From positions 1 through 19,655 of IMG/VR virus record IMGVR_UViG_3300029577_000167: a stretch of DNA of 19,655 nucleotides; one strand, given 5' to 3'. Origin of the DNA: a virus. Taxonomy: Duplodnaviria > Heunggongvirae > Uroviricota > Caudoviricetes. A model generated the notes under the pieces. The model was not told the origin of the DNA, did not search any database, and saw nothing but the letters and a program-made list of their open reading frames with translations. Shown here piece by piece: positions 2,836-19,655 of the stretch; within the stretch, counting starts at the first letter, position 1, and every line of letters begins with the position of its first letter. Made by a program: the position numbers and the translations under genes.

Positions 2836-2908
2836 AACAGGCATTTGCAAACTCCGGTGCGCCTTATCCGTTATCGTTGCCCCGGACAAAATTATTTGAA
2901 CAAGAATT

Positions 2909-4228: not shown

Positions 4229-4262
4229 TACGAAAAAGCAAGTTCGCGTTAACAGTGACGAT

Positions 4263-4664: not shown

Positions 4665-4702
4665 GTTGATAATTGATAGGTAAGTGCTTATCTATTACCA
4701 TG

Positions 4703-4730
4703 AGACCACTATATATAGTGGTCTTTTTAA
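4703..4730 (+). terminator. perfect 22-bp palindrome followed by T-run
   Basis: AGACCACTATA/TATAGTGGTCT (4703-4724) followed by TTTTT (4724-4728); lies 40 bp after the RuvC-like ORF stop. Confidence 0.5.
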
Positions 4731-4902
4731 TTGGGCTACACATAATAAGCATCGTAAAACGTAACGCCCACCGAGCCGCTGCCAGCTGCATGAAGCGCTG
4801 ACAAAGTTCGCTGTCGATTGCACTGGCCCGAGCCAGTTCGAATACCAAACCCACCAGCAATCCCGTACCAACTTCAAAACCCCCGTAGTCGAGTTCAATC
4901 CC

Positions 4903-5358
4903 CAGCTCAAAACCGTAAAAGTATTCAGTGATGGCTCCTGCCTCAAAAATCCGGGCGGGCCGGGCGGTTACGGCATCGTTCTCCAGTATCGAGGCGAAGA
5001 GCGCGAGCTTTCTGAGGGCTTCCACAGCACGACCAACAATCGGATGGAGATGATGGGCGCCCTGATTGCGCTGGAGCGTCTGAAGTACCCCTGCAACGTG
5101 ATCCTGCATTCCGACAGCCAGTATCTTAAAAACGGCATGACGCTCTGGATGAAAGGCTGGAAGCGTAACGGATGGATCACGTCTGAGAAGAAGCCAGTCA
5201 AAAACGTGGATCTCTGGAAACGTCTCGACGCGGCCGCCAGTCGTCATAATGTCCGCTGGAAGTGGGTTAAAGGCCATGCAGGTCATCGCGAGAACGAAAT
5301 GTGTGACCGTCTGGCGAAGATCGCCGCCTATTGTCGAGCGAGTCTCCGCTTTTGTTAA
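4903..5358 (+). CDS. rnhA: ribonuclease HI homologue; initiation codon unresolved
   Basis: ...[23 protein letters not shown]...[18 protein letters not shown]...HSDSQY...[16 protein letters not shown]...[20 protein letters not shown] aligns along the whole length with E. coli RNase HI as recalled. The frame is open from 4765, but no ATG/GTG/TTG exists in frame before 5044 (the codon at the position of the E. coli Met is CAG). Confidence 0.75.
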
Positions 5359-5603
5359 GTCCCCGCTGAATAATCCCCTCACCCGCGGTGAGCAGATGGA
5401 GCTGGCAAGGTGGTTTCTGCGTATCCATGAGCAGATGGAAGTTTTTAAACAGTTGCCGGATCTGCCCATTACAGACGGCCAAATTCAGTGTGCCACTTCA
5501 GTACGGTCGACGATGACAACGACGCAAACCTGCTTTTCGTCAAATCCGAAATCATAAAGTTGCGCAGGGAGAGAGAGAAATCGACGCAGAGCAGGCCCGC
5601 AAT

Positions 5604-5819
5604 ATGTGGGACGAGGCAGAAAACGCTGATGACGTAAAAGAAAGTTGCTGCTGTTTCGGTGTCGGTAACGAACTGCTGAGTCTGTTTGGTGACGATCCGT
5701 GGTATGCCGGTTGGCCAACGGTGCCAAACCCCAGATACCAATACCTGGAACGTATCATGAACGCGGTACGTAATGGGCTGAAAGAGCTTCACAATCAGAT
5801 GAGAGAAGCAATCGGTTAA
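5604..5819 (+). CDS. hypothetical small protein (71 aa)
   Basis: ORF with ATG start; no clear SD; contains a CCC triplet (SCCCFG). Confidence 0.35.
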   Translation: MWDEAENADDVKESCCCFGVGNELLSLFGDDPWYAGWPTVPNPRYQYLERIMNAVRNGLKELHNQMREAIG

Positions 5820-5857
5820 GTGCTATAGTCAGGCGCTTTTATATTTATGGAGTGAAT

Positions 5858-6556
5858 ATGAAAAATATCCTACTGGCATCATTGTTGGTGGCATCGCCGG
5901 CTGTATTTGCAGCCAGCTTTGACTGCCAAAAGGCTTCGGCAGAAATCGAACACAAAATCTGCGATAACGAACGCCTGTCAAAATTAGACGAACAACTTAG
6001 CTCTACCTATTCCAACGCACTCAAAGCAAACCCGGGGGACGCAGACGCCTTAAAGACGGTTCAGCGTCAATGGGTAAGTATGCGTGGAAAACTCACTGGT
6101 GATAAGACTCTGGAGTTGGCTTATCTAATCCAAATTAATGGCCTCAAGAGTTTGGATGGTTCGGCCAGCACTGCGGTGGTCAATGAGACACCAAAGCCTG
6201 TGCAGAAACAGCCTGAAGTTCAGGAAAAGACAAGCAAGGCAGACACAAAGCAGGCTGAGAGCGGTAAAAAGCTAACTCTGGAGTCATTCCGAGCTAAGTA
6301 TATTGAAGTTGACGGTGAATACTACAGCACGACATCCCTTCCCAGAGGGAGTTCGTTCTTGTTCACCTGCGCAAGTCGTATCGCAGATGACCAGGTGAAT
6401 ATTTGGAAGAAGGTGGCAGCCAAAGAGGGCAAGATCGATCTCTTCTTTGAACTTGAGAATCGAATACATACCGCAATGCTGAATGCCAATTTTCAGAAGC
6501 TAAATAGTGATTTAACTAAAACAGGCATTTGCGATCTGATTACTGCTGTTCCGTAA
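5858..6556 (+). CDS. secreted protein with LprI-like (DUF1311) domain
   Basis: Signal peptide MKNILLASLLVASPAVFA; FDCQKASAEIEHKICDNERLSKLDEQL...QRQW pattern typical of DUF1311 / lysozyme-inhibitor LprI N-terminal domain; GGAG 5 nt upstream of ATG at 5858 (ORF track starts at GTG 5852). Confidence 0.65.
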   Translation: MKNILLASLLVASPAVFAASFDCQKASAEIEHKICDNERLSKLDEQLSSTYSNALKANPGDADALKTVQRQWVSMRGKLTGDKTLELAYLIQINGLKSLDGSASTAVVNETPKPVQKQPEVQEKTSKADTKQAESGKKLTLESFRAKYIEVDGEYYSTTSLPRGSSFLFTCASRIADDQVNIWKKVAAKEGKIDLFFELENRIHTAMLNANFQKLNSDLTKTGICDLITAVP

Positions 6557-6564
6557 GCCAGATA

Positions 6565-6583
6565 AGGCCATTATTTGTGGCCT
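6565..6583. terminator. hairpin AGGCCA-ttatttg-TGGCCT, bidirectional terminator candidate
   Basis: Stem-loop between convergent genes 5858-6556 (+) and 6612-6815 (-); immediately followed by the palindrome TTAAACAATTTGTTTAA (6583-6599). Confidence 0.45.
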
Positions 6584-6611
6584 TAAACAATTTGTTTAAT
6601 TAGTGGTGTAA

Positions 6612-6815
6612 TTATTGGAATCCCAGGCGAACTAAATCCATTGGGCAGAACAGATCTTCCACACCTTCGATAGACACGCAGTCAGAGCGGCGTAATTGTT
6701 CTTCTGATTTGCCTTCTCCGCAGATTTCCTTGATGACTCCCGTTGCACCATTCGTTGCCACCATCACTCGGCTGCCGGTAGTGATAGTGTTACGGTTGCG
6801 ATCATAGGTCTTCAT
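6612..6815 (-). CDS. YdfZ-like small protein (67 aa)
   Basis: MKTYDRNRNTITTGSRVMV... resembles the E. coli YdfZ family as recalled; strong RBS AAAGGAGGAA upstream on the minus strand. Confidence 0.6.
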   Translation of the reverse strand: MKTYDRNRNTITTGSRVMVATNGATGVIKEICGEGKSEEQLRRSDCVSIEGVEDLFCPMDLVRLGFQ

Positions 6816-7002
6816 CGTTTCCTCCTTTCACATGGGTCAAATCAGGTTTCAAAAATTGCCGTTTTCCATGTAGGTGCGATTTGCAAAATCTCAAGCGCCA
6901 AAACAAATTGTTTTCACCATCTTGTTATTCAATTAACCCGTAAAGTTGACCAGTACCGTAATAAATACCACTGTTTATATGTGCAGTATTGCGAGGCGAG
7001 CA

Positions 7003-7269
7003 ATGGGCAGCAAGAATTCTAAATATGTGATCGTCTATAGGGGCGAAGCACTCAAGCACCTAATACCCGGACAGTTCGTTTTCTTCCAACGTGAAAAAGA
7101 ATACGGTGGGGGGTTCTGGCTTGGTAAAACGCATGAGGATGGGTTCGAATTTGTGCTGGAGCAACCCACTTCACTAAGTTACGGGCTTGCGTATCTGATC
7201 AGATTGTCGAGTGTCGAAGCCAGGTATATGGAGTTTGTTGATGACATAGACGACTTCAAACTCACCTAG
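7003..7269 (+). CDS. hypothetical protein (88 aa)
   Basis: ATG at 7003 preceded by GAGG; ORF track extends to 6946 without an RBS. Confidence 0.5.
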   Translation: MGSKNSKYVIVYRGEALKHLIPGQFVFFQREKEYGGGFWLGKTHEDGFEFVLEQPTSLSYGLAYLIRLSSVEARYMEFVDDIDDFKLT

Positions 7270-7310
7270 TCATCCCTTAAACATCTTGTTTTCTGCCTTT
7301 CGTTATTTGA

Positions 7311-7343
7311 GATAATAATACCAATAAGAAAACAAATTGTTTA
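7311..7343 (+). promoter_or_regulatory. conserved upstream cassette (type A), copy before gene 7355
   Basis: GATAATAATACCAATAAGAAAACAAATTGTTT, followed by AAGGAG and ATG at 7355. Confidence 0.55.
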
Positions 7344-7354
7344 AGGAGTTAATC

Positions 7355-7591
7355 ATGTTCGGAACCGCGAAAGAAATTATCGAAAAGCTGGAGAACTACC
7401 CAGAAGACGAGCCGCTGCTGATGGTGATGTGGCACAAGGAAGATGTAGGTGAAGGGCGACCAGACCTGACTGACGAACAGTGCGTTCAGGTTTTGCGAAA
7501 AATCAAAGAGTGCCATGATGCCAGCGTCGGCGTGAATTGGGATGTCATTTCTGACACGGCCAACATTCTGTTTCCAAAGGAGAAGGCATGA
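7355..7591 (+). CDS. hypothetical acidic protein (78 aa)
   Basis: AAGGAG RBS 6 nt upstream of ATG; stop overlaps the start of the next gene (ATGA). Confidence 0.6.
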   Translation: MFGTAKEIIEKLENYPEDEPLLMVMWHKEDVGEGRPDLTDEQCVQVLRKIKECHDASVGVNWDVISDTANILFPKEKA

Positions 7592-7908
7592 TGCTGAAAA
7601 TCACCGAATCGTATAAGACGGCGGTGATCAGCACCGCCCACGTCACGGCAGCGGATTCAGAACGGCTACCCATTGCCTGCTTCGACCCACTTACTGATCG
7701 CGGGTTGAATTGGGTACACGGTACACAGTATGGATGGATTGTTCGTGCTGGAATGCGAGGGAATGACTGGAAGGAAGAATTGCGTGATTACGGCATTTCC
7801 CAAGAGGCGATCTCTAACATACAGGCCATACGGGATGCCGGGTATGATTCGGTACAATTTGACTGTGATGCGGAGCTGGTGGATGGAATGCCAGCATGGG
7901 ATTGGTAG
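7588..7908 (+). CDS. hypothetical protein (106 aa), translationally coupled to upstream gene
   Basis: AAGGAGAAGG RBS; ATGA overlap with 7355-7591. Confidence 0.6.
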   Translation: MMLKITESYKTAVISTAHVTAADSERLPIACFDPLTDRGLNWVHGTQYGWIVRAGMRGNDWKEELRDYGISQEAISNIQAIRDAGYDSVQFDCDAELVDGMPAWDW

Positions 7909-7923
7909 ATATAACTACTAGCA

Positions 7924-8550
7924 ATGGCGGGAATAATTACCTGGAAAGTTGATATCATATACCCGCTTGTATTTCAAAATGGAATGGATGTAATGGAAAT
8001 CGATACTTTAGAAAAAAAATCAGTTAAAAACCTCTACGCGTGGCTTATAGCAATACTGCCGTTTGTTGTCAGCGTCCCCCCTGCTGAGTACGACAATTAC
8101 GTTATGGTGATTTCGTTCGTCATTGGGCTTGGACTGCTGGTCGCCGATCGCATGAATTTGACTGAGGCAGGCTATGAGCCACCATCATTCTTATGTGGGT
8201 TCTTTATCCCCCCTGTGTATCTCTGGAAACGAGCGACGGTTCTTGGAAGTAACCGACTGCTGTTTATCGTATGGATTGTTGCCTTTGCTGCATCATTTTT
8301 CGTGTATAGCTTCAACGCAGATTCAGCGCTTGAAGAAGCTGCTTGCCCTATAGTTACCACTATTCTGAAAGAAAATAACGGTTCAGAAGCATCTAAATGC
8401 ATGAAGGTAACAATTCAGGACAAAGTGACGGACAAGTTCTACAAAGCCACGGCTACACTGGATAACGGTAATGACATTAACATCACTATCGAAATGATCG
8501 GTGACGAGAATTTCTACGTTCGCGTGCCTAATTACTACCTAAACGACTAA
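7924..8550 (+). CDS. predicted membrane protein (about 3 TM segments; start uncertain, alternatives 7984/7993)
   Basis: Hydrophobic segments LYAWLIAILPFVVSV, VMVISFVIGLGLLVA, LLFIVWIVAFAASFFVY; soluble C-terminal region. Confidence 0.5.
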   Translation: MAGIITWKVDIIYPLVFQNGMDVMEIDTLEKKSVKNLYAWLIAILPFVVSVPPAEYDNYVMVISFVIGLGLLVADRMNLTEAGYEPPSFLCGFFIPPVYLWKRATVLGSNRLLFIVWIVAFAASFFVYSFNADSALEEAACPIVTTILKENNGSEASKCMKVTIQDKVTDKFYKATATLDNGNDINITIEMIGDENFYVRVPNYYLND

Positions 8551-8987
8551 CGGCTGCAACTCGTTGACATTGGCGGTCACAAATTGAGGATTTCTATAAG
8601 AGTCCGTTGATCGCCACTTCCCCCACCTCTCCAACCTACCCCAGCCCAGGGGTGACAAGGCATTTAAGCCAATTACACCCATAAGAAAACAAATAAATAA
8701 CACGTCAACGAAAAGTCAACGCTTTCCTCTGATTTGGTCTAAAAAGTTGACGTTTTCGCAAGCCATCTCTTATACCCAAAATCCTGCGCACCAGAATCCA
8801 TCTCCCTGCGACCAAAACGTCAAAAACGACTCGTGATATCACTCAAAAACAGAAGCGCTCAGAAGCGCTCCCGTTGCGTTATATTGGGCATCTAAACAAG
8901 TTGTTTTCAGGCATAAGAAAACAAGTTAACAACCCCCACAGGAAACCCAGAGACGCCATTACCCACAATCCCGGAAACACCCACCTC

Positions 8988-9073
8988 TTCCTGTCAGACT
9001 ACCGAAAAGACCCACCTCATTGCCCCAGGCTACAGACCACCCACCTAATATTCCCAGGCAACCGAGAACGCGG
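8988..9073 (+). repeat. three tandem 28-31-bp C/A-rich repeats (core CAGRCWACMGA...CCCACCT)
   Basis: Units 8988-9018, 9019-9046, 9047-9073; paralogous triplet at 12989-13074. Confidence 0.7.
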
Positions 9074-9646
9074 TTCGCACGCGCAAACCCCGATACGTCA
9101 TTACCCAATACACGGAGAAGAACAGCCAGAACGAAACCCCGGACAAACCCAGACAAGAACAGGAGCCGTCACAATCTCGTTTACCCACCATTACCCCGAA
9201 AGAGAGCGCAAATTCCTGAATAGCAGGGAACGCCATTACTTCATATGCGGAGAACAACTAAAGCGCCCTACTGCCATTACCCACACTTTCATCATTTCAC
9301 GTAAACGAAGAGAAAAGCGCACCTGCCATTACTCCATACACGGAGAAGAACACTCACCAAAACGACGAGAACAACCCAGACGAAAACACAGAGAAGAACC
9401 ACCTCAAGAAGAACGAAACCACATATGCCGGTAGAAAGAACAAACCACCCATTTCACCCAAAGGAATACTCGCCGTATAGAGCGTTATCAGAGGGAAGGT
9501 TTATGCCCACATAAGAGAGAAAATTCGTGGGAGGTATAAGTGGGAAGGGAAGGAGGGGTATCGCCACTTTTTCCGCATAAATTCAAGCCATAGTTTTCAT
9601 CCCCCGTAACGTCCCTTTCCACCCCTTCGGTCAGCCTTCGGGCCAT

Positions 9647-9825
9647 CCGGGAAAGCTATGTCCCTTTTCAGGAACGGGAGCGTCGCCGCAGGGAAAAGGC
9701 TTGAGGTTTTCAGGGAAACGGTGGGAATCCCGCTATACGAACCGGGGAAAGGCTGGCTGCCGGTCGGGAAACGGGTACATCCCGGTACAGAGTGAGGGAC
9801 GACTGCGGGAGCGGTGCGGGAAATC
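9647..9825 (+). repeat. GGGAAA(C/A)GG-type direct repeats, about 21-bp period
   Basis: CCGGGAAAGC 9647, CAGGAACGGG 9669, GCAGGGAAAAGG 9687, CAGGGAAACGG 9711, CGGGGAAAGG 9743, TCGGGAAACGGG 9763, GCGGGAAATC 9816. Confidence 0.65.
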
Positions 9826-10093
9826 TTCGGGAGTGCGCCTTACTCTTCACTCGCCTGAAAATCGCGGGGGAGTGTCATTCCCTCTCGTGCAGCTACTGGA
9901 CTCCATTCTGCCAGACCATCATTGGGTCTCAAGCTATTTCAGTAGGTTTTCGGGGAGAAGGATATTCTGCCCACCAGCCCCGTGGCGCGCGTAGAGCAGA
10001 ATATCGTAAATACTGGCTCCCGTGTCGTTCCCGGATATTCACTGCCCAGCCTGGCTTTCACGACATAAAATCCTTTTCCGCCTTTGTCTTATT

Positions 10094-10128
10094 GCGATAA
10101 TAACACCAACAAGTAAACAACATGTTTA
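10094..10128 (+). promoter_or_regulatory. conserved upstream cassette (type A) before gene 10160
   Basis: GCGATAATAACACCAACAAGTAAACAACATGTTTA; palindrome AAACAACATGTTT at 10115-10127. Confidence 0.55.
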
Positions 10129-10159
10129 GACGTTATATAAACGAAGTGAGGATGAAGAG

Positions 10160-10378
10160 ATGATTAAGATGCCTGTGACGGTTGAGGTGTGGGGCGTGGA
10201 TTCCCTGGCTGAGTGTCTGGATGCAGTGGGGCCGGAGTTGTACCGCAAGTTGTGGTCGTTCGTCCCGGCAGAAGGGGAATCGCCCAAAGGGAAGGATATC
10301 TGGCACCTGCTGAGTGAAGATGAAAAGCGGGAGCTGGTGGACGCGGTACACAGCGAGTTCCCGGGCGACGAAGATTAA
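10160..10378 (+). CDS. hypothetical small acidic protein (72 aa; 17 D/E vs 7 K/R)
   Basis: GAGG RBS 8 nt upstream; followed by hairpin terminator at 10385-10410. Confidence 0.6.
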   Translation: MIKMPVTVEVWGVDSLAECLDAVGPELYRKLWSFVPAEGESPKGKDIWHLLSEDEKRELVDAVHSEFPGDED

Positions 10379-10384
10379 GAGTGA

Positions 10385-10410
10385 GGCCACCAGCACGGTG
10401 GCTTTTGTCG
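10385..10410 (+). terminator. intrinsic terminator (GCCACC-agcac-GGTGGC + TTTTG)
   Basis: Hairpin and T-run immediately after the stop of 10160-10378. Confidence 0.6.
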
Positions 10411-10450
10411 CTATTAACCTCCGGGGCAGCGCAGCACCGTAACGATATAC

Positions 10451-10506
10451 TTTGTGGCCGTTTTCTTACTGGTATTGTTTACGCAATTCAGAAAACAACA
10501 TGTTTA
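10451..10506 (+). promoter_or_regulatory. conserved upstream cassette (type B, about 56 bp) before gene 10518
   Basis: TTTGTGGCCGTTTTCTTACTGGTATTGTTTACGCAATTCAGAAAACAACATGTTTA; near-identical to 10942-10997. Confidence 0.55.
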
Positions 10507-10517
10507 AGGATTGCGTT

Positions 10518-10847
10518 ATGTTTGCAAATATCGACATCAACCAAATCAAGAAAATGACTCAAAAAGAGTTTGACCAGTTTTATGAGTTAGAAGGTTGGTC
10601 TTCCACGCTGATCAATTCGCGCTGGGTGCTTGAGCTGATGACTCGTGATGATGCTCCTGCTTTGATTATTTGCGACCTGGGTGATGATGCTGACTTTATG
10701 GATATGAGCGAATTTTGTGTGGATACATACAACCGCAGCCAGAAGTACTACTTCACATGCGATAGCGAGAATGACGTGATTTCTAAGCTCTATCTTCACC
10801 TTGTCCAGCATTGGGACGTTCAGGAGTTCCTTGATGTATTCGCGTAA
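10518..10847 (+). CDS. hypothetical acidic protein (109 aa; 21 D/E vs 8 K/R)
   Basis: AAGGA RBS; ATG at 10518 (ORF track begins upstream at 10452, inside the cassette). Confidence 0.6.
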   Translation: MFANIDINQIKKMTQKEFDQFYELEGWSSTLINSRWVLELMTRDDAPALIICDLGDDADFMDMSEFCVDTYNRSQKYYFTCDSENDVISKLYLHLVQHWDVQEFLDVFA

Positions 10848-10941
10848 ACCCAACCAAAGCCAGCACCGCCTGCTGGCTTAACTTCTCTGTAGCCGCAGGG
10901 AAGAACCACCTTTAGATAATTCATGTGCCTGAGCAATATGC

Positions 10942-10997
10942 TTTGTAGCCGTTTTTACACTGGTATTATTTACGCCATTGAGAAAACAATTTGTTTA
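10942..10997 (+). promoter_or_regulatory. conserved upstream cassette (type B) before gene 11008
   Basis: TTTGTAGCCGTTTTTACACTGGTATTATTTACGCCATTGAGAAAACAATTTGTTTA. Confidence 0.55.
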
Positions 10998-11007
10998 CGG
11001 AGTGGTG

Positions 11008-11319
11008 ATGAATACTTCATTGGTGCTGGGTCTTGCTGAAGGTCAGGAGAGAAAAGAAAAACCAACCTTAATGGGGCATCTCACATTGCTGGATATCGTA
11101 GCGAATGGGACTTCTATCCGTCTGTTTCGTGAAAAAGCCATTACCTTCGACGCGGGCAATTTTACGCGCTATGTGATGGTAGTTCGTCGCCAGCGTGGAA
11201 GAGGGTGGATGTCGGTCCAGAAAATGTGGCCAGAGGACCAGCTTGAACTGGCGCTGATGGAAGCCAACCGTGTCGCCCAACAAGAGATCCAACGAGCGTC
11301 TGTTCAGGCGGTAGCTTAA
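11008..11319 (+). CDS. hypothetical protein (103 aa)
   Basis: GGAG 5 nt upstream of ATG 11008; terminator at 11354-11382. Confidence 0.55.
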   Translation: MNTSLVLGLAEGQERKEKPTLMGHLTLLDIVANGTSIRLFREKAITFDAGNFTRYVMVVRRQRGRGWMSVQKMWPEDQLELALMEANRVAQQEIQRASVQAVA

Positions 11320-11353
11320 ACATGTGCAAGCAGTAGTTAGTCGAATGTACGAC

Positions 11354-11382
11354 AGCCCCGCCAATCCTTCGGGGCTTTTTTG
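11354..11382 (+). terminator. intrinsic terminator (AGCCCC-gccaatccttc-GGGGCT + TTTTTT)
   Basis: GC-rich hairpin followed by a 6-T run. Confidence 0.7.
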
Positions 11383-11440
11383 TATTGTAAGTACTTACTT
11401 ATGATAATAAAATTAAAAATTAAACACTAAGGAGAGTGAA

Positions 11441-11836
11441 ATGACCGTTAAACGCGAAAATCTGACCCTGGATATGTATTATGCATCAGAGACGGAAAAT
11501 GGAGACAAAGTTGCAAAAATTACAATTGTGCTACGCGATAATGCCTCCGGCGAAGAAGTTCACACCAGTACCTTAACTCGCACCGGCGAGGCCACAAAGG
11601 GAAAATATTCGGTGCGTTACCAAAGCATCAGTAATGCTTCTGACCCTTTACTGATAAAACTGGAAACTCATTTCCGTGGCGCGGATCAGACGTTGTTTGA
11701 AAATTTGATGAAAAAGGTCGATGCGGTTTATACATCGAGTTTAAATACCAATAGTACCTGGATGGGACAACACGGTCTGCGAATAATCTCCGGCGAAAAG
11801 ATCGACACCATTGTCCCTGAAAGCGTATTCGCTTAA
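11441..11836 (+). CDS. hypothetical protein (131 aa)
   Basis: AAGGAGAG RBS; AT-rich leader containing the perfect palindrome GTAAGTACTTAC (11387-11398); terminator at 11847-11872. Confidence 0.6.
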   Translation: MTVKRENLTLDMYYASETENGDKVAKITIVLRDNASGEEVHTSTLTRTGEATKGKYSVRYQSISNASDPLLIKLETHFRGADQTLFENLMKKVDAVYTSSLNTNSTWMGQHGLRIISGEKIDTIVPESVFA

Positions 11837-11846
11837 TCCTCTTTGA

Positions 11847-11872
11847 ATGGCGCGTAAACCGCGCCATTTTCT
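11847..11872 (+). terminator. intrinsic terminator (ATGGCGCG-taaacc-GCGCCAT + TTTTCTT)
   Basis: Hairpin plus T-rich tail after stop at 11836. Confidence 0.65.
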
Positions 11873-11953
11873 TATTCCCGATAACAATTTGTTTTCTGCC
11901 TTATCTGATTTGTGAAAATGATTTCACTGAAGCAACTTAATAAGGATACCATC

Positions 11954-12328
11954 ATGGGACTTGATATCTATATCGAGACGCAGCCTAAAAACGATCTGAA
12001 TAACGAGGCATCCAGAAAGCAGGTTGCTTACTTCCGTAAGTTCAATGCGCTCGTTGGGTGGATGGAGCGCAACGTAGGTGAAGTCGAAAATTGTGAGCTT
12101 TTAGAATTAACGATGAATGACATTTGTTTTCTGAAGGCTCATTTGATGCACATAAACGAAAGTAATTGCGAAGTGTACTTACCTACCCGGGAAGGTTTTT
12201 TCTTCGGCAGTCAGGAGTACGATGAAGGTTACTGGCATGACGTGGATAAGCTGAAAAAACTTGTGGAAGACCTGATCAGGAACCACGACTTTCACAATAA
12301 CAGACTGACGTTCCGTGCCTGGTGGTAA
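11954..12328 (+). CDS. hypothetical protein (124 aa)
   Basis: AAGGA RBS before ATG 11954; shortened cassette copy (CGATAACAATTTGTTTTCTGCC) at 11871-11900. Confidence 0.55.
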   Translation: MGLDIYIETQPKNDLNNEASRKQVAYFRKFNALVGWMERNVGEVENCELLELTMNDICFLKAHLMHINESNCEVYLPTREGFFFGSQEYDEGYWHDVDKLKKLVEDLIRNHDFHNNRLTFRAWW

Positions 12329-12330
12329 AT

Positions 12331-12474
12331 ATGGGCGATTTCAAGAAACGCCTGAAGGAGAGAGCCGAGATGGTCAGAAAGCGAAACGCCTCTTCTGTCA
12401 TAAGATACGCAAGGCAGTTTAGTCGCAACAACAAATCAGTTGAGGAAAAGATCCTTAGCGTAATCGGGCGATAA
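12331..12474 (+). CDS. possible small basic protein (47 aa), starts 2 nt after the upstream stop
   Basis: MGDFKKRLKERAEMVRKRNASSVIRYARQFSRNNKSVEEKILSVIGR; below the ORF-track size cutoff; followed by hairpin 12481-12506. Confidence 0.3.
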   Translation: MGDFKKRLKERAEMVRKRNASSVIRYARQFSRNNKSVEEKILSVIGR

Positions 12475-12610
12475 TTATTAAGGCCACCAGCATTGGTGGT
12501 CTTAAATGACTTTTAATAACCGAAGGTTAGTTTGAAACCTGGCTATCAACTTCCAGAACCTTTCTTGTGTATTCAGCCTGTATTAACTTCTTTTATGCCT
12601 TATCTACACT

Positions 12611-12645
12611 GCGATAATTACACCAACAAGAAAACAATATGTTTA
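12611..12645 (+). promoter_or_regulatory. conserved upstream cassette (type A) before gene 12664
   Basis: GCGATAATTACACCAACAAGAAAACAATATGTTTA; palindrome at 12632-12644. Confidence 0.55.
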
Positions 12646-12663
12646 CGCAGTGAGGATATGCTC

Positions 12664-12945
12664 ATGACTGATTTCACCATTACCCCTAAAGCACAAAATG
12701 TATTCCTTGAATCATGGCTGGACTTGCCGGAAACAGAACAGCAAGAAATGGATCATGTGGAATATGACGAGCAGGTAAGCACGCGATTCTTCCACTTTGA
12801 GGGCTGCGTTTACGACATTGCCGACTTCATGCGAGATGACCGCTTCCCTGAATGGCACGCAAGCTATCCACTAAACGCCTTCGCCATGCTGATGATCCGT
12901 GTGGATGATTCAGGGGATACCATCGACATCGGTCTGCTCCACTAA
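12664..12945 (+). CDS. hypothetical small acidic protein (93 aa; 20 D/E vs 5 K/R)
   Basis: GAGG 8 nt upstream of ATG 12664; hairpin 12951-12977 after the stop. Confidence 0.6.
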   Translation: MTDFTITPKAQNVFLESWLDLPETEQQEMDHVEYDEQVSTRFFHFEGCVYDIADFMRDDRFPEWHASYPLNAFAMLMIRVDDSGDTIDIGLLH

Positions 12946-12988
12946 AGAGTAAGGCCACCAATGCTGGTGGCCTTAAATGACCATCCTG

Positions 12989-13074
12989 TTTCCCGCAGGC
13001 TAAAAACACCAACCTCTTACCTCCAGGCAACCGACAAACCCACCTGTTCCCGTCCGGCTACCGCAACTTTCCAC
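12989..13074 (+). repeat. three tandem about 29-bp C/A-rich repeats, paralogous to 8988-9073
   Basis: TTTCCCGCAGGCTAAAAACACCAACCTC / TTACCTCCAGGCAACCGACAAACCCACCTG / TTCCCGTCCGGCTACCGCAACTTTCCAC; CCAGGCAACCGA core matches 9055-9066 exactly (12/12). Confidence 0.7.
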
Positions 13075-13094
13075 TTTGACGCCTTATTCGTACA

Positions 13095-13130
13095 ACGATA
13101 ATTAACACCAACAAGAAAACAATTTGTTAT
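13095..13130 (+). promoter_or_regulatory. conserved upstream cassette (type A) before gene 13150
   Basis: CGATAATTAACACCAACAAGAAAACAATTTGTTAT; a possible -35 TTGACG at 13075-13080. Confidence 0.55.
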
Positions 13131-13149
13131 TTACGATAAGGAATTAATC

Positions 13150-13632
13150 ATGAATTTTATCGCTACTGTAAACGCACCCGCACATGGCAATATCGCTGTA
13201 ACGTTCTCTGATATTGAAAAACGAGTACTTGGTGCATGGCGCGACAATGAGACGGTAGAACTGTCAGCACAAGAAAAATGCATTATTGCACGCGACATCA
13301 TTTGCAAACGTCGTTACTCACGGGTAATTGAGAAAGCGTATGTCGCAAATTCTGGCTTCGGAACATTTGTCTTCCCGGTACGCTCCGGGCGATTCTGCCA
13401 GTCCAAGCTGATTGAGTTCGCTACGCAGATTTCTGTCTGGATTAAAACTCAATCGTCGTTCAAATTTTCCGACGATGAAGCAGTATCGCAGGGGATGCGG
13501 ATCGCCAACAATGCAATAAAATGCAAAAACATTACGTATGCCGCTGGCGTTGACACATGGAAACTGTTTTGCGCTAACTTTATGCTGAATGTATACGCAA
13601 GCAACCGCATCCACATCCTTGATGGCGTGTAA
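13150..13632 (+). CDS. hypothetical protein (160 aa)
   Basis: AAGGA RBS; hairpin GGGCC-agaaac-GGCCC + TTTCTCT at 13641-13662. Confidence 0.6.
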   Translation: MNFIATVNAPAHGNIAVTFSDIEKRVLGAWRDNETVELSAQEKCIIARDIICKRRYSRVIEKAYVANSGFGTFVFPVRSGRFCQSKLIEFATQISVWIKTQSSFKFSDDEAVSQGMRIANNAIKCKNITYAAGVDTWKLFCANFMLNVYASNRIHILDGV

Positions 13633-13677
13633 CTGAGAAGAGGGCCAGAAACGGCCCTTTCTCTATAGCCACCAGCT

Positions 13678-13818
13678 GCCGCAGGGAAATTTTCAGAAAC
13701 GGCGAGGAACGCATTCATGAGCCGACGGGAAACGGCCAAGATTTTTTCGGGAAACGGCGGGGGTCGCCTTTATGTAGAAAACTGAGCGGGAGAAACCCGG
13801 AATCGCGCCAGAAATTGC
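13678..13818 (+). repeat. second cluster of GGGAAACGG-type repeats, about 22-bp period
   Basis: GCCGCAGGGAAATTTTC 13678, CAGAAACGGCG 13694, CGACGGGAAACGGCC 13723, TTCGGGAAACGGCGG 13747, GCGGGAGAAACCCGG 13785, CGCCAGAAATTGCG 13805. Confidence 0.6.
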
Positions 13819-14231
13819 GTAGCGGCGCTGGGGTAGCGCTGGTGGGGGTTTCAGCCCCTGGGCCATCCAGATAGCTTTCGCTATGTGATTATGTGAATCC
13901 GTGGGTAAATCACTGTAAGCGCGTACACGTTGCCCAACGTGGCAATCATATGCGAGCGGATACAAAACAACACAAAGAGCCGATCCGCGCCGACAAATAA
14001 ACGCGGATCACATAGCAAGACTAAAAGCCAATGATTAACCATACTCTATAGCGCAATATAACGCGTTTTAAGCGCGTTAATGTGTTAAGTAATGTGTATG
14101 TACTAACAAGGATATAAAAGCGCGTCTATGGCGTTATTTTGGTGCTTATTTTTATGTTGTTGGAGCGAGTTAAAGACAATAAAAAACGCGCTAATGATGG
14201 CGCGTTATGGTGGGAGTATTGGAAACGAAAA

Positions 14232-14250
14232 AAGCGCCCATAGTGGGCGC
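14232..14250 (-). terminator. 19-bp perfect palindrome AGCGCCCATAGTGGGCGCT, terminator for gene 14257-14487
   Basis: Flanked by AAAAAA on the plus strand (a U-run on the minus-strand transcript); identical copy at 14507-14525. Confidence 0.6.
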
Positions 14251-14256
14251 TCGATT

Positions 14257-14487
14257 TTATTTGTGTAAACTAATTTTGAATCCCATTTCTACAAACGCTT
14301 TTAACATTAAAAATATATCAGCGTCATTCACGTCTGCTTTTTTTCGCTCCTGGTCGTTCAATAAGTCAATTTTGCGCGTTGTTTCATTTATAAACTCGAC
14401 TGCGCGCCCAGCGATCCCAGCGATCCCAGCGATGCGATTAACATAATATTCATTATGGACGTTAACGCCAGCGATAAGAACAAACAT
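14257..14487 (-). CDS. hypothetical small protein (76 aa) containing IAG-IAG-IAG from a 9-bp tandem repeat
   Basis: AAGGAG RBS 8 nt upstream on the minus strand; low-GC region. Confidence 0.5.
   Translation of the reverse strand: MFVLIAGVNVHNEYYVNRIAGIAGIAGRAVEFINETTRKIDLLNDQERKKADVNDADIFLMLKAFVEMGFKISLHK
14407..14433. repeat. perfect 3x tandem repeat of CCCAGCGAT (in frame inside ORF 14257-14487)
   Basis: Units at 14407-14415, 14416-14424, 14425-14433. Confidence 0.9.
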
Positions 14488-14506
14488 GATTAAGCTCCTT
14501 AAAACT

Positions 14507-14525
14507 AGCGCCCATAGTGGGCGCT
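14507..14525 (-). terminator. second copy of 19-bp palindrome AGCGCCCATAGTGGGCGCT, terminator for gene 14538-15188
   Basis: Identical to 14232-14250; lies 13 bp past the stop of the 216-aa gene. Confidence 0.55.
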
Positions 14526-14537
14526 ATATCCATCTAA

Positions 14538-15188
14538 TTACGCTTTGAAAGCATCAGCCAGATAGTTATAAAAATCATTTTTAACGAAGCGATATTGCTG
14601 TGATCCGTTTTTCGCTGCACCCATTCCTTTGATTTTTTCGACCAGTCCCAGACGTTCGCAAAGATTGATAAGCTGGTTGGCTTGAGTGTATCCTGCGTCT
14701 AATTTTATTTCGTTGGCTTTTTTCGCTTCATTCATTAAATCGAAAACAGCGCCATTGGTGAACGTGTCGATCTCGTCGTTAATCATATCGATTAAAGCGA
14801 ATACACGAGATCCGGACATATCAGCGACGGAATAAACACACTTTCCAGCTTTAATAGATTTAACCAGATAAACCAGTTTTTCGAGTGAATAGCTATTGGT
14901 CATAGCTTCACGGAAAAACGCTTCAGGTGCTTGTTTACTTGCTTTAATCGCGTAGTAAAAGATACCAGCTAATTTCTCATCATTAACAGCGTTTAAAACG
15001 TTGTTGGTGAAGTATGCTAGTTTGGTAGACGCTGCAAGCATGTTAGCTTTATCCGCTTTTGTGTGTGTACCATTTTTATAATGATTGTTATAAGTCTGAG
15101 TAGCGTTGTTGGCTGCAACTTGTAACTCATTAGCGATAACCACAGCAGCGTCGATAATGGATTTTTTAGAAATGGTAACGTTAGACAT
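14538..15188 (-). CDS. hypothetical protein (216 aa) in AT-rich acquired segment
   Basis: AAGGA RBS 8 nt upstream on the minus strand; N/K/A-rich composition distinct from neighbours; no motif recognised. Confidence 0.6.
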   Translation of the reverse strand: MSNVTISKKSIIDAAVVIANELQVAANNATQTYNNHYKNGTHTKADKANMLAASTKLAYFTNNVLNAVNDEKLAGIFYYAIKASKQAPEAFFREAMTNSYSLEKLVYLVKSIKAGKCVYSVADMSGSRVFALIDMINDEIDTFTNGAVFDLMNEAKKANEIKLDAGYTQANQLINLCERLGLVEKIKGMGAAKNGSQQYRFVKNDFYNYLADAFKA

Positions 15189-15461
15189 GATGTTAATCCT
15201 TATGTAATATTGATAACTTAATTTGTTGTTTGTTTATCGTTAGCGTGTTCGCTTTCGATGTGACTAATTATCGATATACAGAAATTAAAATCAAGAGTTT
15301 TTTATGCGGGAACGAAAAAATTTTTCTCCAATAAAAATCAAAATCTTAGAAATAAAACGCGTTTTCTCGAAGGTGTTGCCTAAATAAATTCTCTATTCAG
15401 CCAATCACCCTTATATATTTAAATTGGAATCGAGTTTGTGGGAAATAAATATAACGGGAAG

Positions 15462-15498
15462 TGACGAATAAAATAATAACCGGACTTAGCCGGTTATT
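15462..15498 (-). terminator. intrinsic terminator of the helicase-side operon
   Basis: AATAACCGG-acttag-CCGGTTATT hairpin (15475-15498) followed on the minus strand by a U-rich tract. Confidence 0.6.
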
Positions 15499-15510
15499 AC
15501 CCTTATAGAT

Positions 15511-16038
15511 TTAAAACGGTAAAATCCGTTCGACCCAATCGAACATGGCGACTGTCTTCCTACCGTCCCCCATGTTGAGTGTGACCTGACAAGCGTCAAC
15601 GCCTGAAGACACCCCCTCAATTTCACGGCCATCCGCCATGTAGACCCTTATAGACTTCTGCATCTCATGGGCCTGGCGACAAATTTTGAAGAAATCACGG
15701 CGAGATGGCCGATTGTCCACATAGTCTGGGTGTATCGTTGTCCGACCCGTGAAGTCGTGTGCAATGCCTTCTGTCACACCTGATTCAATCGTGCTGATTC
15801 GCTCAAGTGGGAGCCTTATACGATTATCTTTGTCGAACGGGGCAGGGCAAAGGTCGACCTTGTTGCGTGACGACATGAGACCCTGAACATACATGCAGAA
15901 CACCTGACCATCTTCCATCGTGACCCTTACAGGAATAAGAGACTTGCGCCAGAACATCAGCGCTTTCTCCACGTTGGTGTAATCGCGCGGCCAGACTTCT
16001 GCAGGAATCCCGTAGGTGATGTCAGTAATATTCGTCAT
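15511..16038 (-). CDS. hypothetical protein (175 aa) with internal duplication of an RVxMxDG module
   Basis: Start ATG at 16038 lies 2 nt after the upstream stop (ORF track extends to 16080). PVRVTMEDGQVF...LERISTIE and SIRVYMADGREI...FDWVERI look like tandem copies. Confidence 0.5.
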   Translation of the reverse strand: MTNITDITYGIPAEVWPRDYTNVEKALMFWRKSLIPVRVTMEDGQVFCMYVQGLMSSRNKVDLCPAPFDKDNRIRLPLERISTIESGVTEGIAHDFTGRTTIHPDYVDNRPSRRDFFKICRQAHEMQKSIRVYMADGREIEGVSSGVDACQVTLNMGDGRKTVAMFDWVERILPF

Positions 16039-16042
16039 ATCG

Positions 16043-16465
16043 TCACAGTGTCGTTGGTAAGATATCGATGTCACCAGCATTACTGGTGAACACCCGGAAG
16101 ACTTTCGTCTCGCCAGCTTTGGTAATCGTCTCGCGTTCCTGACGAGCAGGATTCAGTGCGCACAGCCCAGCGTCTTCGAGTGAGGCGCCAACAATCCATT
16201 CTCCGGCATCCAGATGAAAAGTGACTTTTTCACCTGTTTCCAGTTTTGCAACGGTTTCGCCATTGATGAAGATCGATGCGTCGCAACCGGCGCCCACCAT
16301 GCTTTTATCTCTCATAACCACCAGCGTCGATGCCGCCGGAGATTGGTATTTGAATATTCTGGTCTGCGGTGCTGGCTTTGCCTCAGAGACAGGAATAGGA
16401 CGAGATTGACATGCAGTGATAAGTAACGCGGAGGCAGCAACCAGAGGAAGTAATACGTGTTTCAT
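16043..16465 (-). CDS. predicted lipoprotein (140 aa)
   Basis: MKHVLLPLVAASALLITAC: signal peptide with lipobox LITAC; ORF track start at 16501 is upstream of the likely Met. Confidence 0.6.
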   Translation of the reverse strand: MKHVLLPLVAASALLITACQSRPIPVSEAKPAPQTRIFKYQSPAASTLVVMRDKSMVGAGCDASIFINGETVAKLETGEKVTFHLDAGEWIVGASLEDAGLCALNPARQERETITKAGETKVFRVFTSNAGDIDILPTTL

Positions 16466-16524
16466 TGTACCGAACAAAATCCTTATCTTTACGAAAATCA
16501 TGGCGCCTCAAGGCGCCATAATGC

Positions 16525-16803
16525 TCAATCGAGGCGTTTTAGAATATCGGCCAGATCTTCTTTGGTCATACCCGAGTTTTCGTAAATCTTCATGACCTTT
16601 TCACGAGCCTTTGCAGTAGTCTCTAATGACGTAGCTATCTTATCAAAATCACCCATCGTCATATTGGACAGCACCAGATTGATGATGTCTGCTTTTGACA
16701 GTTTTATGCTGCGTTCACGCAGTCGATTCTGAAAGGTCTCTAGTTTATCGTTTGCTTTTTCGGTTAACTTAACCTGGCAGTTAATAGCGCGTTTCTCGCT
16801 CAT
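16525..16803 (-). CDS. hypothetical small helical protein (92 aa)
   Basis: Starts 9 nt downstream of the helicase stop; charged helical composition. Confidence 0.5.
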   Translation of the reverse strand: MSEKRAINCQVKLTEKANDKLETFQNRLRERSIKLSKADIINLVLSNMTMGDFDKIATSLETTAKAREKVMKIYENSGMTKEDLADILKRLD

Positions 16804-16812
16804 GCTTACTCT

Positions 16813-18366
16813 CTATCCAAAACAGTGAAATCGAATGTGCTGCCAACCGGCAAGACCCCCCTCGGCAAACCCAGGCGTCGTGTCGATAATGTGTTTCCGC
16901 TCATATGAATGCGACATGAGGTATTTGTTGCTCACGTCGATGAAGTCGGTAATAAAGCACACGTTAGCCTGATTTTTCTTGGCTCGTAAGCCACGACCGA
17001 CACGCTGTCTCATTTCAACTTCTGCTTTCCCGCCACCACCCAGAATCACCGCGCCTACGCTTGGAACGTCGACACCAACATCCAGAATGGTTGAACCAAT
17101 GAGAACATCTATCTTGCCTGCCGCCAGACTATTAAGTTTTGCTTGTCGGGTAGTCTGGTTTGATTCTCCGTAGATGAAATCGACCTTGAGGCCACTCTCT
17201 TTCATCATTTCCATCAAGATCTGACCATGACGCTTCAGACGAACCAATGTCATACAGTTCAGACCGTGACTCTTGTACATTAGCGCTTCACGCACAATAG
17301 CTTCGTTGCGGCCCAGATTATAGACGATGCCTAACTGATAGGCTTTCTGGTAAGCCGTGCTCATTCCAACCCTAAAATTCAGGTGTTTTGAAGCAAGTTC
17401 GACTCTAATCCGCGCCTCATCTGGAGTGTACGCGATTTTATGATATAAAAAGTATGGTTTCGCTAAAATACCTCTGTCGATCAAATATTTCTCCGTTACT
17501 TTTATCTCGATGCGACCCGCAACGGCCATGAGACGCATATTTGCTTCAGTCGAGTCCTTCATGAACGGCGTAGCTGTCAGCGCCAGACGGTAGTCGGCAT
17601 TGGTACACAACCGGGCTATATCGTAGAAGTTTGAGCCGGATGATTCGTGCGCTTCTTCCAGAATCAGCAGAGAAACGCTGGACAGGAAGCGCTTAACCAA
17701 TTCCCGGCGTTTCAGGTGATACTGTTTTTTCTCTGGAGATGCGTCGCGCGACGGCTCTTCGAGAAAACTAGCAAGGGTCTGAACCGTGGCAACGTTGATA
17801 TGGCGCGATACCTGGAACTCACCAGATCCAATCACCCCAACTTTCTGACCTTTCAGCCACGGCTCGCCATTCTTCGCGCGGTAGTCGATGGATTTCTGGA
17901 AGTTCTCTGCCATCTGGAACATCAGAACCGATCGCGTGGTTAAAAACAGCGTCATACGACCAATGCGAGCAGCAGCCTTACACGCTACGTTCGATTTACC
18001 GCCACCCGTCGCAATCTGGGCAATCATCATCCCTTCGCGCACCAGTGTTTCCACTGTCTGATCCTGATACGCGTAGTCCGGGTTATACGGGAATGGGTTA
18101 ACCACCGGATTCGGCTTACCCAGCGCGGGAGCTTTTTCCTTGCGAACATGCACGCATTTGATGCCAGCTTTCAGAAGATTGGTCGCAACTGGCTTCGCAA
18201 ACCCAGCCGGGAACGCGTTTTTACTCCAGTTGAACATCGTGCTGGTCCCTTTCCAGTCACCAGCCTCCACTTCATAGCTCAACATCTCCTGAACAAGCCG
18301 TTTCACGTTGTCATCAGCGCCAGAAATCAGCGCATTGACTGCATTTGATACAATCCGAACAGTCAT
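16813..18366 (-). CDS. superfamily-2 DNA helicase (DEAD/DEAH-box type, phage-like)
   Basis: Walker A IATGGGKSNVACK, motif II LLILEEAHESSG (DExH variant), LALTATP (motif III-like), arginine-finger-like QRVGRGLR near the C-terminus. Confidence 0.85.
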   Translation of the reverse strand: MTVRIVSNAVNALISGADDNVKRLVQEMLSYEVEAGDWKGTSTMFNWSKNAFPAGFAKPVATNLLKAGIKCVHVRKEKAPALGKPNPVVNPFPYNPDYAYQDQTVETLVREGMMIAQIATGGGKSNVACKAAARIGRMTLFLTTRSVLMFQMAENFQKSIDYRAKNGEPWLKGQKVGVIGSGEFQVSRHINVATVQTLASFLEEPSRDASPEKKQYHLKRRELVKRFLSSVSLLILEEAHESSGSNFYDIARLCTNADYRLALTATPFMKDSTEANMRLMAVAGRIEIKVTEKYLIDRGILAKPYFLYHKIAYTPDEARIRVELASKHLNFRVGMSTAYQKAYQLGIVYNLGRNEAIVREALMYKSHGLNCMTLVRLKRHGQILMEMMKESGLKVDFIYGESNQTTRQAKLNSLAAGKIDVLIGSTILDVGVDVPSVGAVILGGGGKAEVEMRQRVGRGLRAKKNQANVCFITDFIDVSNKYLMSHSYERKHIIDTTPGFAEGGLAGWQHIRFHCFG

Positions 18367-18430
18367 AAACCTCTTTCCTTCGTGCCTTTTGTATGGTAAT
18401 TGGCTATTATGTTAAGTAAGTGCTTACACA

Positions 18431-19318
18431 ATGTATTGTATCAAAAATATGGATGTGAAAATTACGATTCTACAGGTGGAAGTCGCGAACCTGCGTCCGA
18501 ACCCCTGGAATACCAACTCCGTTGGGGCGCAAAACTTCGAAAAACTGAAAGGTTCCATCGAAAAGTTGGGCTTTTTTAAGCCAATTCTGGCGCGAGAGCT
18601 GGACGGCGGCATTTTTGAAATTCTCGGTGGCGAACATCGCTGGCGTGCCGCGATGGAGCAGGGCATTTCAACGGTTCCCGTCATCTCCGTGGGCAAAATT
18701 AACGACCTGGTGGCCAAACAGATGTCCCTCGTCGACAACGAGCGCTACGGCGAAGACGATCAGGTCGCTTTGCAGCGCTTAATCGAAGAAATCCAGTCTG
18801 AAATCGACTACCGGTTGTCCGATATCGCCCCGTATGACGACGAAATGGCGGCAACACTCGCCAAAGCATCCGTTATCGATCTTGAAGCGCTGGAAGCGCT
18901 CTCCCGTGGCGATGACGAGCCGGTCGATGAGGACAAACGCGAGAAAACCGAGCGAGTCGGCGCTGAACACCAGACGATGCGCTTCAAGGTGACGTTTGAT
19001 GCGTCAGATCGGGTCATCGAACAGAAGACTCTCGAAACCCATGAGGTCGTCGAGTTTGAGCTGTCGAGTGTGTTCGACCTGATGGGCGTGCAGCTGCCGT
19101 ACCGCCAGATCATCAAAAACACATGCCCGTGGAGATACCGCGGACCAGAGTGCGGCTACACCGGTCCGTACTTCGACAAAAACAACCAGCAAACCACCAT
19201 GTCAGGAGCGGATTGCTGCACGAAACGTTACGACTCATGCAACGCACGGCGCAACTACTTTGCCAATGGCGTAATCCACTTTGGCGGGTTCATTGGGGCA
19301 ACGCGTTATGGGCAATAG
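18431..19318 (+). CDS. ParB-like N-terminal domain protein with C-terminal lambda gpL-like cysteine module
   Basis: N-terminus LRPNPWNTN...ILARELDGGIFEILGGEHRWRAAMEQGISTVPVI...VDNERYGED fits the ParB/Srx fold (GxxRxxA); C-terminus NTCPWRYRGPECGYTGP...CCTKRYDSC...FGGF parallels the lambda minor tail protein L C-terminus (NTCTWTYRGDECGYSGP...CSKCLSGC...FGGF) as recalled. Start uncertain (18431 or 18449). Confidence 0.75.
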   Translation: MYCIKNMDVKITILQVEVANLRPNPWNTNSVGAQNFEKLKGSIEKLGFFKPILARELDGGIFEILGGEHRWRAAMEQGISTVPVISVGKINDLVAKQMSLVDNERYGEDDQVALQRLIEEIQSEIDYRLSDIAPYDDEMAATLAKASVIDLEALEALSRGDDEPVDEDKREKTERVGAEHQTMRFKVTFDASDRVIEQKTLETHEVVEFELSSVFDLMGVQLPYRQIIKNTCPWRYRGPECGYTGPYFDKNNQQTTMSGADCCTKRYDSCNARRNYFANGVIHFGGFIGATRYGQ

Positions 19319-19655
19319 AGTATTCCCGGAGCTTGGTTCGGACGTTATGCAGGAAATCTATCTGACAGCCATTAAACGTTATTGGTGCTCATACGCACTC
19401 GGTTGCGATTGGCTCACATGGACACACCATCACCGTTAACGCTGCTGGTAACGCGGAAAACACCGTCAAAAACATCGCATTTAACTATATTGTGAGGCTT
19501 GCATGATTAATCTCATTCTTTCTGCTCCAGTAAAAGAAATGACTGAAGCATTTAAGCGAGTATTCGCAAATGCAGACAGGTAATGCTGCCAACTTACTGA
19601 TTTAGTGTATGATGGTGTTTTTGAGGTGCTCCAGTGGCTTCTGTTTCTATCAGCT

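Follow-up and report, generated by a model that had tools for sequence, protein, structure and literature searches.

An in-frame ParB-tail protein L chimera as the probable scar of an 18.4-kb deletion in a decaying SSU5-like phage-plasmid of Escherichia coli

The window analyzed here, i.e., the whole 19,655-nt stretch of IMG/VR record IMGVR_UViG_3300029577_000167, carries near its right-hand end an open reading frame of 295 codons that runs without interruption from an ATG start to a TAG stop. The frame lies exactly where an earlier inspection of the letters (the sequence-only reading) had placed it and is oriented, as had also been stated, divergently from a gene for a DEAD/DEAH helicase. That reading interpreted the product as an unusual fusion of a ParB/sulfiredoxin-like domain with a cysteine module resembling the C-terminal part of lambda minor tail protein L. 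Both identities proved correct. Pfam ParB_N (PF02195) matches residues 14-103 (E 2e-13, 50.7 bits against a cutoff of 26.3) and is spanned from position 4 to 93 of 95, so that the N-terminal part belongs to this family. Phage_tail_L (PF05100) matches residues 195-293 (E 3.7e-39, 134.6 bits against a cutoff of 25), and it is only the C-terminal half of the profile, positions 108-206 of 206, that is represented. The scores did not change when each half was searched by itself, as had been suggested, and both similarities are thus far beyond chance. In full agreement, PHROGs assigns positions 5-193 of the 223 positions of PHROG 723 ('ParB-like partition protein') to the protein and a minor tail protein family to residues 195-294. 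Among solved structures, ParB, Spo0J and Noc chains match the N-terminal part (E 1e-10 to 1e-4), while lambda gpL (8iyk_L) and an F2-pyocin hub protein align from the point where the two parts meet.

All sequence motifs quoted in the sequence-only reading are present: LRPNPWN at residue 21, GGEHRWRAA at residues 66-74, VDNERYGED at residue 101, NTCPWRYRGPECGYTGP from residue 230 and FGGF at residue 284. GGEHRWRAA aligns with GERRYRAA of Thermus thermophilus Spo0J and represents the arginine-rich box. The GxxRxxA box is the NTP-binding motif of CTPase ParBs. The four cysteines C232, C241, C263 and C270 align with C173, C182, C205 and C212 of lambda gpL, the ligands of a [4Fe-4S] cluster (PMC10721106, citing Tam et al. 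2013). [quoted passage not shown] The chimera encodes a complete predicted four-cysteine iron-sulfur domain of the gpL type. A consensus promoter scan, uninformative in this case, gave no match on the plus strand upstream of the frame.

Table 1 Features of the window referred to in the text
Feature	Position	Strand	Basis
Rep3-type replication initiator	1111-2166	-	Pfam Rep3_N, E 2.5e-11
Flag1_repress ORF, 189 aa	15511-16080	-	Pfam Flag1_repress (repressor of phase-1 flagellin, FljA-like), E 1.9e-95
DEAD/DEAH helicase, 517 aa	16813-18366	-	
Chimeric ORF, 295 aa, product of deletion 1	18431-19318	+	ORF listing
SSU5_125-type ParB-like gene, 5' part, codons 1-195 of 232	18431-19015	+	585/585 nt aligned, 99.66% identity to p.CT29-P1
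Junction 1, in frame, 2-bp 'TC' microhomology	19014-19015	+	Three-way alignments with both parent genes
Minor tail protein L gene, 3' part, codons 134-233 and stop	19016-19318	+	99.7-100% identity to L genes of SSU5-like plasmids
K-type tail assembly gene (C40 peptidase/JAB), 5' remnant, ~24 codons	19308-19381	+	Identical to p.CT29-P1 (L002) 21686-21759
Junction 2, K codon ~24 to last 41 codons of tail fibre gene, 'TA' microhomology	19380-19381	+	Alignment with both parents
Tail fibre gene, 3' remnant	19382-19506	+	96.9-98.4% identity to 3' ends of lambdoid phage fibre genes, 99% to SSU5-like plasmids
Macro-domain gene, 5' remnant, 25 codons, cut by IS1	19503-19578	+	99% identity to ET358 and YY76-1 plasmids
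IS1 terminal inverted repeat and first ~77 nt	19579-19655	+	Thousands of records, 'IS1-like element IS1A/IS1B family transposase'

What the sequence-only reading further implied, a novel domain architecture in a replication context, is not supported at the DNA level, because the two halves are 99.7-100% identical to two separate genes that lie 18.4 kb apart in intact relatives. Local BLAST aligned nucleotides 1-585 of the frame with the ParB-like gene (99.66%) and nucleotides 581-888 with nucleotides 395-702 of the L gene (99.68%). The window is collinear with phage SSU5 and with many SSU5-like plasmids up to position 19015, where the match ends in every record; identity to the plasmids is 95-99% over 2167-19015, and 96% to SSU5 for the segment with the parB-like gene and the end of the helicase gene, the ParB-like part itself being 96% identical to that of SSU5. 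From position 19011/19014 to 19381, SSU5-like plasmids again match with 99.7-100% identity, now with the 3' end of the L gene and the first ~74 nt of the K gene. In the intact plasmid p.CT29-P1 (NZ_CP032074.1, 108 kb), the genes for the ParB-like protein (232 aa) and L (233 aa) reside on one strand about 20 genes apart, separated by genes for a second ParB-like protein, two ABC-type ATPases, the terminase large subunit, portal-region, capsid, tail and tape-measure proteins and an M-like protein. Relative to this plasmid, 18,446 bp are missing at junction 1. One parent gives way to the other abruptly, at a single dinucleotide, within CGGGTC/GCC in the parB-like gene and TGGTTC/ATC in the L gene (the slash marks the breakpoint), i.e., at an imperfect repeat reading GGTC in the former and GGTTC in the latter. 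A lambdoid prophage as donor of the L part was also considered and is ruled out by the 99.7-100% identity to the L gene of the SSU5-like plasmids themselves; a distant-mode phage search gave no lambdoid phage match for this part.

The chimera is not a full-length version of either parent. Its residues 1-195 correspond to the SSU5_125-type ParB-like protein (YP_006906757.1 in phage SSU5, WP_033870685.1 in p.CT29-P1, PHROG 723), whose gene occupies the same place in SSU5 and p.CT29-P1 as in the window, likewise facing away from the gene for the DEAD/DEAH helicase. Both proteins have the ParB_N domain and the GGEHRWRAA box, but the last 37 residues of the parent (…ADTIKTIIKEQGINTGNEMENAGEALVWLVDYYKERM) are replaced in the chimera by 100 foreign residues. 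Complete members of PHROG 723 comprise ~223-232 residues including this C-terminal segment, and the intact p.CT29-P1 protein accordingly spans profile positions 5-223. Chimera residues 196-295 are the C-terminal 100 residues of the SSU5-like minor tail protein L (WP_064674265.1; lambda gpL family, PF05100, PDB 8IYK chain L). In contrast to L, the chimera is devoid of the N-terminal HDI beta-sandwich hub domain (L residues 1-133), and the upstream M-like gene as well as the downstream K, I and J genes are missing from its surroundings. It can therefore not act as a tail-tip hub protein. The sequence-only reading had rightly noted that the gene is not embedded in a tail module. The order M-L-K-I-J is intact in p.CT29-P1; in the window the M-like, I and J genes are absent and K is reduced to 74 nt. 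The module is missing around the gene because the deletion that created junction 1 removed it.

Downstream of the chimera, further remnants follow. That of the K gene begins within the end of L, an arrangement also seen in intact relatives, where 11 nt are shared, and the gene is whole (265 aa) in five sister contigs that also carry the chimera (L006, L007, L009-L011). Junction 2, where ~8.7 kb with K, I, J and most of the tail fibre gene stf are deleted, is out of frame: past it, the K frame continues for 18 nonsense codons to a stop at 19439, resulting in a nonsense ORF of 43 codons. Nothing thus suggests preservation of the reading frame at this site. The counterpart of the next remnant in ET358 and YY76-1 is annotated 'macro domain-containing protein', with the window diverging at 19579; the whole gene (300 aa, PF01661) is found in sister contigs L005 (11073-11975), L008 and L012. 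In some SSU5-like plasmids it sits between the genes for the tail fibre and fibre assembly. p.CT29-P1 does not have the gene, ET358 carries it with a frameshift, and IS1 interrupts it in the window. The insertion point became visible by comparison with L005, and the IS1 copy runs past the window end. The last 75 nt of the window had also been considered as a fragment of a p15A/pACYC origin, which is ruled out since they represent the IS1 terminal repeat.

A backbone collinear with SSU5 together with the Rep3-type plasmid replicon characterizes the element as an SSU5-like phage-plasmid derivative, and relatives are typed as IncFIB. In a search with the whole window, 14 of the 15 best-matching relatives matched only from position 2167, and the replicon region 1-2166 thus differs from theirs. 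Between 19015 and 19382, essential virion genes are lost, namely those for the terminase large subunit, portal-region proteins, major capsid protein, tape measure and M-like protein, the 5' part of L, K beyond its remnant, I, J and most of the fibre gene. Judged from this gene content, the element would no longer be able to form virions and probably persists now only as a plasmid. Genes for conjugation, mobilization or resistance were not seen within the 19.7-kb window. The ParB-like gene is not adjoined by a ParA ATPase gene as expected for a canonical ParABS system: its neighbors are the divergent helicase gene and, in intact relatives, genes for the second ParB-like protein, ABC-type ATPases and terminase. 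In sister contigs, a partition pair made up of a separate CbiA/ParA-type ATPase and a 119-aa partner is encoded ~4.4 kb downstream. Since lineages devoid of the second ParB-like protein (ParB2) and of the C-terminus of the first (ParB1) persist on many contigs, the two ParB-like genes heading the late operon appear, by this indirect argument, to be dispensable for plasmid maintenance.

We are confident that the 'ParB-tail L fusion' is the in-frame scar of an 18.4-kb deletion in a decaying SSU5-like phage-plasmid of E. coli and probably has no selected function. The ParB-like gene is the first gene of a rightward operon continuing into the packaging, head and tail genes. A microhomology-mediated illegitimate deletion of ~18.4 kb removed everything from ParB-like codon 196 through L codon 133, and with it the second ParB-like gene and the genes for two ABC-type ATPases, terminase, portal, capsid, tail tube, tape measure and M-like proteins. 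Both breakpoints fell into one reading frame by chance, with the consequence that gene callers and a human reader see a single 295-aa 'fusion protein'. If the parB-like promoter fires, a C-terminally truncated protein of the ParB/Srx fold would be made, equipped with an orphan iron-sulfur domain and deprived of tail-tip partners, i.e., what we infer to be a by-product without selected function. After this first event, the out-of-frame deletion from K to the fibre gene and then insertion of IS1 into the next gene followed.

This order of events can be read from related contigs. The exact 295-aa chimera is recorded on 71 contigs originating from NCBI, ENA, JGI, MGnify and Logan, in 112 index blocks. 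A 61-nt stretch bridging junction 1 was present without a single mismatch in all eight independent assemblies that were fetched (NCBI, ENA, Logan; contigs of up to 93 kb), from which it follows that the junction is inherited and not mis-assembled. Five of the eight (L006, L007, L009-L011), three of them represented by contigs of ~92-93 kb, combine junction 1 with intact K, I, J, fibre and Tfa genes. The other three (L005, L008 and L012, one being the 71.5-kb record OZ040223.1) carry junctions 1 and 2. The IS1 junction is confined to the window and was found at none of the eight sister loci. Displaced copies of virion genes were not detected within 10 kb downstream in the sister contigs. A widespread E. 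coli lineage of SSU5-like phage-plasmids is caught here in stages, from the intact element through the first and second deletions to IS1 insertion. Two chimera-bearing sub-lineages differ within the frame by two synonymous and no non-synonymous changes, and the 3.9 kb around it are almost identical between them (~0.1% divergence in 15502-19381). Further upstream, the flank is mosaic among the plasmids with junction 1: divergence is 1-5% in most 500-nt bins of 9002-15501 and reaches 19% in 14002-14501. This pattern is explained by recombination between SSU5-like plasmids after the first deletion, and the data fit a single origin of junction 1 followed by recombination in its flanks.

The spread of the chimera can in principle be explained in two ways: Either the protein is a scar carried along with a successful plasmid, or it is a neo-functional protein kept by selection, in which a ParB/Srx NTP-binding domain has been combined with a [4Fe-4S] module. 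In the latter case it might bind DNA and sense the redox state, or it might be a decoy whose L C-terminal domain spoils the assembly of tail tips by incoming SSU5-like phages. It speaks for selection that the fusion is in frame and has preserved ParB_N as well as each of the four cysteine ligands, that the identical protein is found on at least 71 contigs with two recombination-diverged backbones and only synonymous changes, and that ParB-L chimeras arose at least three times, two of the three sharing the breakpoint in L. However, both halves are still 99.7-100% identical in DNA to their parent genes, no adaptation is visible, and the identity leaves no time for adaptation of a chimera. Two synonymous changes carry no statistical power. 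The ParB part is devoid of its 37 C-terminal residues, and the partner with which the lambda gpL C-terminal domain forms its composite domain, gpJ (PMC10721106), has been deleted here. The frame is lost at the neighboring junction and IS1 interrupts the next gene, which points to ongoing neutral decay. Furthermore, the architecture is absent outside the SSU5-like plasmid family. An exhaustive phmmer search of 1.84 billion representatives yielded no ParB+L protein beyond close relatives from this family. ParB-like homologues at a distance of 35-45% identity stand alone, with ~215-260 aa, and distant L homologues match only by way of their own C-termini. Note that the search for chimeras detects only in-frame products and that out-of-frame scars have been found as well. 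A very recent origin, hitch-hiking on a successful plasmid and the restriction of the search to in-frame products render the wide distribution, the intact domains and the repeated ParB-L chimeras compatible with neutrality, without proving it. We consider a selected neo-function unlikely. Similarly little weight is given to the joint proposal of a co-opted chimera, made from the parB-like promoter that has been retained, and, separately, of deletion hot spots in the parB-like and L genes. One possible form of such co-option would be a decoy, with the orphan gpL-type iron-sulfur domain or the truncated ParB domain hindering assembly or packaging of superinfecting SSU5-like phages.

We see hardly any room for junction 1 as an assembly artefact, i.e., a chimeric contig joining parts of an intact phage-plasmid. 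Such an origin might be suspected since PLSDB, INPHARED and the RefSeq complete E. coli genomes contain no record that crosses the junction and since another chimera, P0129 (polymerase-like N-terminus and L C-terminus), stems from an 850-bp contig at 1.3x coverage. The latter was discarded as a probable mis-assembly for this reason. But not only is the 61-nt junction sequence the same in eight assemblies from three sources, the contigs, with ~71-93 kb, also have the size expected of a 108-kb plasmid shortened by the deletions. Fusion of adjacent genes by frameshift (named in the sequence-only reading as what would speak against a genuine fusion) or by read-through, conceivable in an operon where gene overlaps like that of L and K are common, is extremely improbable given that the parents are 18.4 kb and ~20 genes apart in intact relatives and that the parent switch is abrupt at one dinucleotide; two separate genes have indeed been joined, as that objection foresaw, but the cause is a deletion and not a frameshift.

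The scar described here is not the only one in the family. In E. coli, P0123 consists of residues 1-119 of ParB2 and L residues 134-233 and is preceded by an intact ParB1 gene (14 contigs of 71-87 kb were read). P0004 and P0007 from Cronobacter join ParB1, broken at codon 129, in frame to L from residue ~157, and a second deletion from K to J is located downstream. Further in-frame products are P0006 from E. coli (500 aa; ParB1 broken at codon 192 and a J-like C-terminus) and P0054 on a Logan contig (ParB1 and the terminase C-terminus). The junctions to tape-measure DNA in P0010 (Logan contig) and to ParB2 DNA in P0005 (ENA contig) are out of frame with ParB1. P0123 is in frame as well. In pRHB27-C18_3 (52 kb), the whole module is gone directly after an intact ParB1 gene. 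Microhomology amounts to 2-4 bp at most at all mapped scar junctions. Close in kind to the scar in the window is the ParB-J scar of ET358 plasmid unnamed3 (NMD38_RS25525/RS25530) and its relatives (YY76-1 and others; P0006), where the same parB-like gene is joined by deletion to a tail gene. There, the parB-like break lies 9 nt upstream of the breakpoint in the window, the partner is the J-like tail-tip gene (PF09327) and not L, and ~23.8 kb are deleted compared with 18.4 kb. PGAP annotates both pieces of the ET358 scar as pseudogenes. For the chimera itself, NCBI records give 'phage minor tail protein L' or 'hypothetical protein' (EMV85103.1, EFH4543515.1, CAM3515869.1, GDC82968.1), and P0123 and P0007 are likewise named 'phage minor tail protein L' in public annotation. 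Automatic names of these deletion scars are misleading.

The P0123 junction (loci L017-L020, ~8355-8360) uses the same L-side breakpoint nucleotide as the window at 19014-19016. The parents read CGGGTC/ (parB1), GAGGTC/ (parB2) and TGGTTC/ATC (L) at this breakpoint, with GGTC or GGTTC in all three. Either the two junctions go back to two independent deletions with a common endpoint in L, which would then be a shared hot spot, or the allele in the window was formed in two steps, a ParB2-to-L deletion being followed by an 880-bp deletion from ParB1 to the junction via a perfect 4-bp GGTC. The ParB1 alleles of the two lineages differ at 20 of 585 nt, while the 1200 nt downstream differ by 1, and this speaks against simple descent. 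The argument from allele difference is weakened by the mosaic nature of the flanks.

On the parB-like side, four of six independently mapped deletions have their left ends within 28 nt (window 18988-19015, equivalent to p.CT29-P1 L002 2920-2947), three of them within 10 nt. A GATC site and a small inverted repeat, TGACG-n7-CGTCA, are located inside this segment. In the exhaustive search, truncated ParB-like variants also ended at many other positions (~aa 98-157). The clustering of left breakpoints in the parB-like gene is suggestive at best and may be an effect of the strong ascertainment bias, because score-ranked match lists show only late breakpoints. A perfect 10-bp inverted repeat (CTTGAAGCGC at 18881-18890 and GCGCTTCAAG at 18979-18988, 88 nt apart) is situated within the ParB-like gene; its right arm terminates precisely where the scar joining ParB1 to tape-measure DNA (L015) has its breakpoint, a single coincidence that is no proof. 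With low probability, the segment 18988-19015 and the GGTTC/ATC site in L may act as genuine deletion hot spots through which this phage-plasmid family loses its virion module again and again.

Conversion of phage-plasmids into plasmids by loss of phage genes has been documented for P1-like elements (Pfeifer and Rocha 2024, PMC10879196). The typing of phage-plasmids is known to suffer from defective and hybrid forms, and loss of phage genes is documented there as well (PMC12977533). Just as the defective P1-like phage-plasmids, the element described here has kept its plasmid backbone and lost essential virion genes with the involvement of insertion sequences, and both persist and diversify as plasmids; it belongs, however, to the SSU5 and not to the P1 group of PMC10879196. 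A literature search for gene loss in SSU5 phage-plasmids gave no result, and deletions are not discussed in a 2025 preprint on clinical phage-plasmids. As a protein architecture, the chimera would be without significance, an accidental in-frame scar that is already deposited in public databases. It provides a worked example of how deletion junctions in decaying mobile elements can fool surveys of domain architectures. The window contains one further gene of possible interest: the Flag1_repress ORF, which is kept in all sister contigs and annotated as 'transcriptional repressor' in SSU5. A homologue of a flagellar-phase repressor on a phage-plasmid may merit attention.
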